Source of the DNA: Tubulanus polymorphus
Taxonomy: Eukaryota > Animalia > Nemertea
DNA length: 64,000 nucleotides
Assembly: GCF_964204645.1 (NCBI RefSeq)
Contig: NC_134033.1
Span: 1,632,131 to 1,696,130, forward strand
Direction: 5' to 3'
Shown here one piece after another: positions 44,805 through 47,722 of the stretch. The position numbers were made by a program, and so were the translations under genes. The notes beneath the pieces are model-generated. The model had not been told where the DNA came from. It saw nothing but the letters and a program-made list of their open reading frames with translations, and did no database searches. Positions within the stretch are counted from its first letter, which is position 1. Every line of letters begins with the position of its first letter.

Positions 44805-47722
44805 ATGTATCGGACAGTGATTCACCAACCGCGGAAAGGATCGTCGGCGCTCGGCGATGAGAGGCCGCTAGGGGGCGGTATTGTCGGCGATTTGACTCAA
44901 TTAGCCGCTGTCAGCTACATCAGAATTGAACAAAATGTCGAATTTGACATCAGGAGTAAGTCCGGGAAAAATATTCTAGCCAGGAAAAGCAATTTCGGGA
45001 TCAATCAATTATGATTGATCCATTTTAAACAAATAAGAAATCGTATCTTTCTTTGGTTAAGAAACTTTTCTGAATACAAACAAATCGTCCCTCAAAAGTA
45101 TTCATAAATTTATCAGTTTACCGAACAACGTTTTGTTTTGCAAAAATGGTTCATAGAATTGAGTCTAAACGTCACTAGCCTAAAATGTTTGGGAATGGAG
45201 CTTAAAATTGAGTCAAAACGTCACTAATCCAAAGGTTTTTTCATGATATGTGGTTTTTCTCCAATTCAATAACTACAGCTTGGAGTTATCATTTGACAAA
45301 TGATTATACTCCATTACAAACACTTGTTTGCCGAAACCAATAGATATCGTATGTTTACTATTTTAGGTGGTATTGGCTCGGGAAACACTTACACAGTCCA
45401 AGACAAAAATGGCGAACAACTTTTCAGCGTCATTGAAAGTACGTCAATCTCAACAAAACACATCCATTCATTTCAATCGAATTTATATGAATTTCTAAAA
45501 GGAATCTATTTAATGTACTACAGCTACCACCTGTTGCTGTCGAGTTTGTTGCGGACCATCGAGATCATCGAATTTAATGTTTCTCGGGCAAAATGGCGTC
45601 CCGGCACTGCAGCTTAAGCGTCACGGATGCAGGTAGGGATGAAAGGGGGGAGTGGTGGAGGCACGTCAATGTTTTTAAGATACTTCTATTCCCCCTATTT
45701 CCACCTATTAGCTGTTTGAAATAAATTTCCAAAACTTCGAACGATTTTGATATTAATCCATCTTAAAATCCCGGCAAGTTTGAATGAATGACAATTGATG
45801 GAATACTGCCATTGTACAATAAATGAAGTCATGGGGCGTTTAATAGAGGCAGCCATCTTGTCTTTGGGAGGATTAAGATTTTTGTTCTATGCAGGTGTGA
45901 CTGGTGTTGTTGTTTGGAGTGTTTTTGGTGTAAACATAGAATTGATGTGCGCGATGGACAACATGCTATGCTCGGTACTGTTACACAGAGGTAACTGAAT
46001 ATTCCTTTACATTATTTCCTTTTAATCATTATATACAACGTTATTGATTTCATTTCAAATGCTGAGAATCTTAATACGAAATCCGACACTAAAAATTTTA
46101 AAAAAAAGTCCGAAATGTTTCCTTCACCGCTAGTGTAGTTTATTTCAACCTTCTCGACTTTATCCTAAAAGTCATAATGAGGAATATTGTATTCCTTGAA
46201 CTAGTGTAGTTTATTCAACGTTTCAACTATATCCTAATAGTCATCTTCAGGAATACTGTATTCCTTGAGCTAGTGTAGTGTATTCAACGTTTCGACTATA
46301 TCCTAATAGTCATCTTCAGGAATACTGTATTCCTTGAGCTAGTGTAGTTTATTCAACGTTTAGACTATATCCTAATAGTCATCTTCAGGAATACAGTATT
46401 CCTTGAGCTAGTGTAGTTTATTTAACGTTTCGACTATATCCTAATAGTCATCTTCAGGAATACTGTATTCTTTTAACTAGTGTAGTTCATTCAACGTTTA
46501 GACTTTATCCTAATAGTCGTCTTCAGGAATACCGTATTCCTTGAGCTAGTGTAGTTCATTCAACGTTTCCACTATATCCTAATAATCATCTTCAGGAATA
46601 CTGTATTCCTTGAGCTAGTGTAGTTTATTCAACGTTTCGACTATATCCTAATCTTAGTCATCTTCAGGAATATGAGGATTAGGTCGAAATTTCGCAAGGA
46701 AAAGTTTCGGATTTGTTTTCATTATTGAGCGGGATTTCATATCATCTTTCAACACAGACCGTTTCGTCGATCTAATTCTAAATTTCTTAATTTGTATTAC
46801 CTGTATTAAAGGTTATATTGCTGCGTGCCGGATATTGTGATCAACGATGCATTCGATGAAATCGTGGGGTCAATCAAGGGTCCATGCTCGCCCAGTCGAT
46901 GTTGTATGGATTTACAATTTGACGTAAGTCGAGATAAGAATCTCTTCTTCAACTATTCGAACAAGTTTTTCGTTTCTTTTTCTCCTCATTCCATTGTGGA
47001 CGTTATGATTTTACCGCTGATTATACAGATTCTAGGCGCAGACGGTCGGAAGGTGAAGGGTAGTATAGTTAAGAGCTGGGAACCAACAGACGACACAGTC
47101 AACACCGATCACGATATATTCGAACTATACTGTAAGCGATGAATCTTTTTTTTTGTAAACGCTATTCGAATGTCGCGCACAAAATATTACCACAAGTTCT
47201 ATGACGATATAATCACGACACTTGTCAGTAAGACAAATTCTATGATTATGATAGTAAAATAGCTAAATCGGATTAAAAAGATCAAAAACGGAATTATCTT
47301 ATCGAGAATTGAACAAAAATGTTAATACACGGCGTTTTGTCGCGCATATAGGACAAGCTGTGCAACCTCTGGGCAAGTGGATTGGTTCTGTTGATGTACT
47401 GGTCAAAACGATCATAAGAAGCAAGTAGACCAATAGAACTAGTCCACTTGGCCAGAGATTACTCAGCTTTCCCTATGAAACACTTCGGAATTCATCGCCA
47501 GGTGCGTTGCATAATAGTGGGTTTAAATCTTATTATTCACGGTTATGAATTTCAGTTCCATCTGAATCTTCAGTTCAGGACAAAGCGCTGATGATCGGAG
47601 GACTATTTCTCGTAGTAAGTACAAACATCGTCGGCTCACTTTCATCAGAGGTCTTTCGTACATTTTCCTAAATTTTCCACTTCAAAACATTTCAGAATTT
47701 TCTCTACTTCGAAATGTCATAG
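44805..47722 (+). CDS. PLSCR: Phospholipid scramblase family protein
   Basis: Exons 44805-44955, 45367-45438, 45524-45632, 45895-45990, 46812-46923, 47029-47131, 47556-47614 and 47696-47722. Motifs NTYTVQDKNGEQLF, CCCRVCCGPSR, Cys-rich RCDWCCC and FPSESSVQDKALMIGGLFLVNFLYFE. Confidence 0.9.
46130..46673 (-). ncRNA. Tandem array (8 x 69 bp) of minimal type I hammerhead-ribozyme motifs
   Basis: Minus-strand unit TATTC-CTGAAGA-T-GACTAT-taggat-ATAGTC-GAAA-CG-TT-GAATA: conserved CUGANGA/GAAA core, 6-bp stem II, 5-bp stem I and palindromic AACGTT in place of stem III. The tandem repeat itself is certain; ribozyme activity is untested. Confidence 0.65.

Follow-up and report, generated by a model that had tools for sequence, protein, structure and literature searches.

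The question raised by this locus is whether a 69-bp satellite in an intron of the nemertean Tubulanus polymorphus, whose units resemble minimal hammerhead ribozymes, is transcribed into RNA that cuts itself to monomers or circles of about 69 nt, as the initial annotation had suggested, or whether it is a minisatellite that was seeded by the end of a transposable element and grew as DNA. The window, by which we mean the whole 64-kb stretch of DNA analyzed, contains besides the array a related satellite and decayed relatives of the unit, the coordinates of which are collected in Table 1.

Table 1. Features of the hammerhead array, its host gene and its relatives in the window (C3, core position of the hammerhead; PLE, Penelope-like element).
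Feature	Position	Strand	Remarks
69-bp x 7.8 array	46129..46672	-	unit composed of a minimal type I hammerhead (46 nt) and a 23-nt spacer
First hammerhead unit	46626..46672	-	core intact, 5-bp stem II, 3-nt loop insertion, without upstream hairpin arm (C3 at 46667)
Best-preserved hammerhead unit	46280..46325	-	6-bp stem I, 6-bp stem II, GUU triplet, intact (C3 at 46319)
Third passing unit	46212..46255	-	intact except for G-U, not G-C, at 10.1/11.1 (C3 at 46250)
17-nt near-palindrome at unit junction	46318..46334		predicted hairpin in which C3 and the 5' strand of stem I are trapped
Further junction near-palindromes	46249-46265, 46387-46403, 46525-46541, 46594-46610
3' tail of element, ending in T-run	46074..46135	-	inner ~25 nt common to many genomic copies; loose-end consensus at 46206 and at 46261/46275
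Likely degenerate inverted copy of tail and 3' half of unit	46673..46742	+	imperfect inverted ends
Intron containing the array	45991..46811	+	821 bp, GT-AG, scramblase gene
Phospholipid scramblase-like gene, exons	45344..47722	+	NCBI model adds an upstream exon at ~44805-44969
Head-to-head pair of decayed solo relatives of the unit	31373..31556		31373-31424 minus, 31519-31556 plus
50-bp x 6.9 satellite related to the unit	856..1204	+	stem II kept, both core boxes changed
Further pieces of the 50-bp satellite	45132-45226, 12930-12967

Tandem Repeats Finder assigned the array its 69-bp period with 90% matches, and between any two of the six complete units 2-9 of the 69 positions differ. On the minus strand a unit consists, in this order, of stem I (5 bp), CUGAAGA, one additional U, stem II (6 bp, loop of 6 nt), GAAA, CG, UU^ and stem I', which is a type I hammerhead without helix III. 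The palindrome at 15.1-16.1 (ACGU in seven of the eight units), via which a helix III could form in a dimer, had already been recognized in the initial annotation as a palindromic loop III. The CUGANGA and GAAA boxes together with U16.1-H17 are intact in five of the eight units (C3 at 46667, 46595, 46457, 46319 and 46250) and also in the majority of the genomic reads analyzed below; the core plus stem I are retained in three. In the remaining units the G10.1-C11.1 pair is broken (C3 at 46595), G12 is changed to U (C3 at 46526 and 46388), the first stem I pair is broken next to an intact core (C3 at 46457) or the core is lost (C3 at 46181). The earlier list of intact and changed copies agrees with the copies re-examined, with two exceptions: the unit at 46130 has lost its core and not only stem pairs, and the unit at 46201 nearly passes.

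A strict hammerhead descriptor (core, stem II of at least 3 bp, palindromic 15.1-16.1, UH) found five matches in the 64-kb window, four of them in the array and one at 15625. When a stem I of at least 3 bp was included, three matches were left, all in the array (C3 at 46667, 46319 and 46250), and none of 40 dinucleotide shuffles gave such a match. Rfam returned no hammerhead model at E ≤ 10, and the assignment therefore rests on the descriptor and on the consensus in the literature. The period, the unit anatomy and the descriptor matches compared with the shuffles bear out the satellite of minimal hammerhead motifs. The Rfam result and the modest folding of a single unit relative to shuffles (z = -1.7) are what one would expect if the hammerhead likeness had arisen by chance in an AT-rich, hairpin-containing satellite, but 11 of 11 core bases, both stems and the palindrome are all in register, shuffles did not reproduce them, and related motifs covary and adjoin remnants of Penelope-like elements (PLEs) (see below). 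A chance likeness is therefore close to refuted.

Seven GT-AG exons on the plus strand make one open, cysteine-rich, scramblase-like frame. A protein search with the downstream frame found among 19 candidates the NCBI model P0001, a phospholipid scramblase 2-like protein of Tubulanus polymorphus (PF03803), with 100% identity over 97% of the query; five of the exons, submitted singly, were not recognized by Pfam. Relative to the seven-exon model, P0001 skips one exon and keeps one short intron, and both models splice across the array. Since the array is intronic in a gene on the plus strand and its motifs are on the minus strand, the hammerheads are antisense to the scramblase pre-mRNA; the two gene models confirm the position given in the initial annotation. 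The location within an intron of an intact gene could be taken to mean that the array was co-opted for scramblase regulation, e.g., for cutting an antisense transcript. The motifs are, however, on the strand opposite to the pre-mRNA, five of the eight units are broken, and more than 40% of such repeats in Xenopus are reported to overlap introns, so that an intronic position is unremarkable; we consider such a function highly improbable.

With an extra nucleotide (U) after A9, G10.1-C11.1, a 6-bp stem II and a stem I of 5-6 bp, the array motif has the set of features that distinguishes the hammerheads of PLEs. The minimal hammerheads (min-HHRs) in the pseudo-LTRs of these elements are, in the sections of the report cited here (PMC4209133), likewise of type I, without helix III in the monomer, palindromic at 15.2-16.2, and endowed with an extra nucleotide after A9, G10.1-C11.1, a long stem II and a short stem I. 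They are also present in each genome in thousands of copies, mostly solo and some as head-to-head pairs, which is how the family described below is organized. The difference is that the tandem unit of T. polymorphus consists of the motif itself with its 23-nt spacer and that the PLE partner is a putative one. Judged by their sequence, the 69-bp units are minimal type I hammerhead motifs of the PLE kind, as had been proposed; the full feature set of PMC4209133, the covariation of stem II across related motifs and the neighborhood of near-identical motifs to remnants of PLE reading frames all argue for it.

The neighborhood was seen in one metagenome scan with a 24-base pattern taken from the unit, which found four loci, two of them independent (three represent the same place). 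At the first locus (L001) the motif and a broken open reading frame with a DKG motif are ~140 bp apart and in opposite orientation; among the 137 relatives of this frame, the 120 listed mostly contain PF28514, often together with PF00078 and PF26215. At the other three (L002-L004) a frameshifted GIY-YIG-like remnant (atlas match of 0.95; PF01541 on 13% of the members of one cluster) is followed 75 bp downstream by a near-identical motif whose stem II contains two compensatory pairs. Remnants of PLE reading frames are thus present beside the motif in two of two independent metagenome loci, which are from other organisms and were found with a pattern derived from this very unit. Pfam recognized nothing relevant in five PLE fragments (one unrelated weak match), and tblastn with six PLE fragments gave no match below E = 1 in the 64-kb window. 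The linkage to Penelope reverse transcriptase or GIY-YIG frames that the initial annotation had proposed to look for was therefore encountered, in the form of remnants, in the metagenome loci and not in the window; a PLE partner of the Tubulanus family may be assumed.

How widespread the unit is was estimated from raw DNA reads of another sample labeled Tubulanus polymorphus (run X5, of which ~12% was used), the copy number being taken from read depth with contig depths left out. The depth over the motif was 10,865 as compared to a mean of ~5.9 on 13 bins judged to be single-copy, which corresponds to a family of ~1,900 copies at a sequence identity of at least 80%. Among the joints listed, 2,078 of the 11,146 reads on one unit show a return after 69 bp, the dominant period, as against 122 reads for 59, 67 or 71 bp. 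At the 5' edge of the motif the depth is ~8,800, to which tandem continuation contributes ~3,100-3,800 (summed from joints and spacer depth), and from this it follows that ~40% of the units are preceded by another unit and ~60% are not, most loci therefore being solo or short.

The upstream flanks of the copies are heterogeneous (agreement 0.56-0.64), and the downstream flanks of several subfamilies converge to a similar tail of ~45 nt with a T-run at its end. In four listed joints 253 reads switch strand at 46317-46324, which is both the center of the junction palindrome and the 5' edge of the motif, and head-to-head pairs must therefore exist. Head-to-head inversion is a PLE hallmark, and the reads show it at exactly the junction point. 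Truncation, partial tandems, inverted copies and a tail of 30-40 bp are given as hallmarks of PLEs in the cited part of PMC8557442, and the family exhibits 5' truncation, partial tandems, inverted truncated copies and a short 3' tail.

Inverted copies are also at issue in the immediate surroundings of the array, which is flanked by inverted arms (46094-46124 and 46696-46726) that are 77% complementary. Their score was reached by none of 2000 shuffles; a wider comparison at this locus gave a weaker result (139 of 5000). A target-site duplication of 6-12 bases around the insertion was not found. These imperfect inverted ends, the T-run at one end and the lack of a duplication of that kind would be in line with a non-autonomous DNA element of the HINE/Helentron type, or a tandem-repeat MITE, in which a captured hammerhead unit is enclosed by two inverted end modules and which moves as DNA. 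Dispersed short arrays inside HINEs are, according to the portion of PMC7492417 used here, common in bivalves, and in the cited parts of PMC4067079 and PMC7492417 the HINE/DINE-1 elements and tandem-repeat MITEs resemble our locus in having short dispersed arrays between inverted modules, T-rich ends and no target-site duplication. The papers found that treat MITEs together with hammerheads deal with plants.

Several observations argue against such a carrier. The tail is common to solo copies and is in register with the unit, the upstream flanks are heterogeneous as mentioned above, and the read depth of the outer part of the right arm is close to that of single-copy sequence, the tail side being the one seen to be common to the copies of the family. 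The HINE/DINE-1 layout (short subTIR, IR, microsatellite, 3' palindrome) could not be recognized in the array, neither a microsatellite nor a terminal palindrome being evident by eye at the locus, and hammerhead units are not described in those parts of the two papers. Inverted truncated copies are, moreover, normal for PLEs in the part of PMC8557442 cited. A DNA element as carrier is thus rather unlikely, and the inverted arms are likely an old inverted truncated copy.

Of the 28 variants listed among the genomic copies, as frequencies without haplotype phase, 27 reach at least 3% in X5. One (95.5%) merely corrects a base that is private to the reference unit. Three are found at 14-15%, namely U17 to C (H17, giving GUC), one in the distal stem II pair and one in loop 2, and a fourth, at 11.5%, on the outer margin of stem I; the core contains none of these, as would be expected if the source copies had kept a working motif. 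GUC is carried by 13.7% of the reads. GUU cleaves more weakly than GUC. CpG transitions amount to 5.4-6.9% at all four CpG positions, G12 to A included (5.5%), and U4 to C is found at 3.6%, a pattern that indicates neutral decay after insertion. Since conservation across the copies is about equal in spacer and core, spacer positions varying no more than most core positions, a selection specific for the core is not clearly apparent.

Within the family the changes 2.1 C to U (4.3%) and 1.1 G to A (3.6%) in stem I agree with each other in frequency, which is a match of frequencies only. Across 13 related motifs picked by hand both partners are changed in four of the six stem II pairs, and sliding the alignment reduced stem II pairing from 78% to 33-39%; in the same motifs stem I is 65% paired. 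Since these motifs were chosen for resemblance, the covariation of stem II is supportive, not decisive.

Could RNA transcribed from the array nevertheless cut itself? A 17-nt near-palindrome precedes each internal unit, and the minimum-energy fold of a unit is the hairpin formed by this junction, which confirms the competition with stem I noted in the initial annotation. Forcing a double hammerhead onto the best adjacent pair of units costs 11.0, 14.3 and 20.1 kcal/mol for the inner, the outer and both cores, respectively, as compared to 6.4, 7.5 and 11.2 kcal/mol for the same constructs with shuffled spacers, i.e., ~5-9 kcal/mol less than with the natural spacer; a cost as high as with the latter was reached by 10, 8 and 5 of 200 shuffles. 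In the fold of the whole array C3 is paired with a probability of 0.5-1.0 in all seven units examined. The predicted active fraction is 1e-4 to 1e-16, depending on the construct, and is lower than with shuffled spacers; the Vienna energies used leave out tertiary contacts, Mg2+ and proteins or chaperones. A type III fold with the junction hairpin as stem I was also considered and was rejected because no NUH precedes the hairpin.

These predictions bear on the possibility that the array functions as a miniature non-LTR retrozyme, the minus-strand transcript of which would be cut by double hammerheads to 69-nt monomers that are circularized and re-inserted as multimers by a PLE reverse transcriptase. 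Three units match the descriptor, two of them adjacent (C3 at 46319 and 46250), ~40% of the genomic units are in tandem with a dominant 69-bp period, and all core bases are kept in the consensus. GUU is among the cleavable NUH triplets in the part of PMC3138052 consulted, part of the reads carry GUC, and the junction hairpin could act as a switch. The predicted active fraction argues against it, as does the finding that the copies retain the 3' tail and the 5' flank rather than ending at the cleavage site. The circles demonstrated for retrozymes have 170-400 nt, are highly self-paired and contain canonical hammerheads (PMC7229834, in the sections cited). The activity of min-HHRs in vitro is described as low even for dimers in the cited part of PMC4209133; of the Xenopus tandem dimers one of nine was cleaved, as stated in the portion of the preprint of Li, Clavereau and Pollet used here (bioRxiv 10.64898/2026.07.22.740005); and hammerhead mutants of the anole PLE (PAc) still insert in vitro according to the part of PMC11167929 cited. 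An active miniature retrozyme is thus distinctly unlikely.

That catalysis can be dispensed with is indicated by the 50-bp satellite. It aligns to the 69-bp unit with a score that 1 of 5000 shuffles equaled, its stem II is kept via two compensatory pairs, and its loop is nearly unchanged. Although its core is dead, it is abundant and tandem as well (870 reads show its period at the copy near 45143), and tandem growth in this genome therefore needs no catalysis. One may still imagine a 69-nt hammerhead replicon that is switched between a hairpin (off) and a double hammerhead (on), yields 69-nt monomers or circles and is re-inserted by a Penelope reverse transcriptase, with the 50-bp satellite as its extinct sister; this would be very improbable. 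The self-processing to ~69-nt products put forward in the initial annotation did not find support: by prediction the natural spacer ties up stem I and C3, only three of the eight units pass, the core shows neutral CpG decay, and a core-dead relative has formed a satellite of its own.

Our preferred explanation, which we hold to be probable, is that the array is a minisatellite of a hammerhead-bearing PLE end that grew through slippage of the DNA or through unequal exchange, and that it is, by prediction, for the most part non-cleaving. Its starting point is what was found: a motif with the anatomy of PLE min-HHRs in a dispersed family of ~1,900 copies, mostly solo or in short arrays and with a common 3' tail. 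The unit likely stems from a hammerhead-bearing PLE end (pseudo-LTR plus tail), and a PLE reverse transcriptase would have spread the family in the form of short 5'-truncated ends from source copies with an intact core. In our reconstruction, head-to-head inverted pairs would then have recombined with the tail via a short shared motif, the outcome being a direct-repeat unit that retains the inversion center as a hairpin. This unit would have grown locally as DNA, and its copies would decay neutrally. In a transcript of the array the relic hairpin is predicted to outcompete stem I, and therefore little cleavage and no 69-nt circle are to be expected; the host pre-mRNA, being the other strand, would stay uncut.

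The array has close counterparts among the non-LTR retrozymes of Li, Clavereau and Pollet (bioRxiv 10.64898/2026.07.22.740005), which also contain a type I hammerhead per tandem unit and for which, in the passages cited, the same birth is proposed, namely from a PLE pLTR end followed by local tandem expansion. A unit of 69 bp, which the initial annotation had regarded as very small for a retrozyme-like one, falls within their predicted range of 51-972 bp, and the ~8 units of the array come close to the 7 that their arrays mostly do not exceed. They require two complete motifs in succession, which the units with C3 at 46319 and 46250 provide if G-U is allowed. In those passages nemerteans are not among the classes named, and neither a junction hairpin nor a core-dead sister satellite is described.

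With the retrozymes of coral, mussel and axolotl (PMC7229834, in the sections cited) the array shares the low-GC tandem repeat and the type I hammerhead; any cleavage of the array would, as reported there for the axolotl, depend on dimers. These retrozymes differ from the array in their canonical hammerheads, units of 150-450 bp and demonstrated circles of 170-400 nt, the array having a minimal motif in 69 bp. As tandem, non-coding, dispersed units each with a type I hammerhead, the Tubulanus repeats correspond to non-LTR retrozymes in the wide sense, and they lie outside the definition of 2020 (canonical hammerhead with loop 1-loop 2 contacts, unit of 150-450 bp). By its features the array is a retrozyme-like, PLE-end-derived minisatellite of an already known kind. 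Hammerhead tandem repeats down to 51 bp had been predicted before, and the circles demonstrated are those of 170-400 nt, as far as the cited parts of the preprint and of PMC7229834 report. The 69-nt circle hypothesis is markedly unlikely.

The literature search on Tubulanus polymorphus found no repeat annotation, and the nemertean retrozyme literature found concerns other elements only; our finding extends the PLE-derived hammerhead tandem repeats to a nemertean. If 69-nt circles were nevertheless formed, the lower bound on the size of self-processing RNA elements encoded in genomes would have to be revised; a 69-nt replicon would have less than half the size of any retrozyme circle shown, and the core-dead satellite would then be a natural test of whether catalysis drives the spread of retrozymes. 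What the genome of T. polymorphus offers is an unusually clean pair, a 69-bp satellite with an intact-core consensus and a 50-bp satellite with a dead core, both of them amplified, and this pair bears on the question whether the retrozymes called by pipelines need catalysis or are ordinary minisatellites seeded by PLE ends.

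The window holds further hammerhead-related sequences besides the 69-bp unit that is repeated inside the scramblase gene. In the 50-bp satellite family, which is abundant in the reads, compensatory changes preserve stem II. Of the solo motifs, the one at 15625 has an intact core and a stem II of 6 bp and is without stem I, as judged with the descriptor, a strict hammerhead motif pattern.

Further features of the window (window-based coordinates)
Feature	Position	Strand	Remarks
Rhodopsin-family GPCR	18621-19712	+	363 aa, single frame; PF00001, E=4.6e-08
Fibronectin type III exons	48228-50679	-	
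Long Ser/Thr/Pro-rich frame	62199-63065	-	27-bp repeats
High-copy repeat	43760-44311		directly upstream of scramblase gene
Tandem repeat	63364-63734		71-bp x 5.2
Tandem arrays, 20-44 bp	3575-3725, 8602-8886, 18106-18494, 21110-21315, 51645-52027, 60099-60486		dispersed family
47-bp repeat family	6771, 10405, 14876, 59388		likewise dispersed
(CCTAAT)5	43256-43286		short run
50-bp satellite family	856-1204, 45132-45226, 12930-12967		related to hammerhead unit; core-dead
Solo hammerhead-like motifs (n=3)	15625, 14303, 7909	+	other families

In X5, raw DNA reads from another sample with the same species label, the depth of the high-copy repeat reaches about 1,165, corresponding to roughly 200 copies. 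All arrays of the 20-44 bp family have one core motif in common, and the unit of the 71-bp repeat may be similar to a Tc1/mariner-type terminal motif. A single base separates CCTAAT from the telomere repeat that is common in animals. The Ser/Thr/Pro-rich frame is mucin-like and has a hydrophobic segment at its end.

The NCBI protein model of the scramblase gene (P0001) omits a well-formed, cysteine-rich exon of 96 bp (45895-45990) and retains an in-frame GT-AG intron of 105 bp (46924-47028), which is removed in our own model. These differences between the two models possibly reflect an annotation error or alternative splicing.
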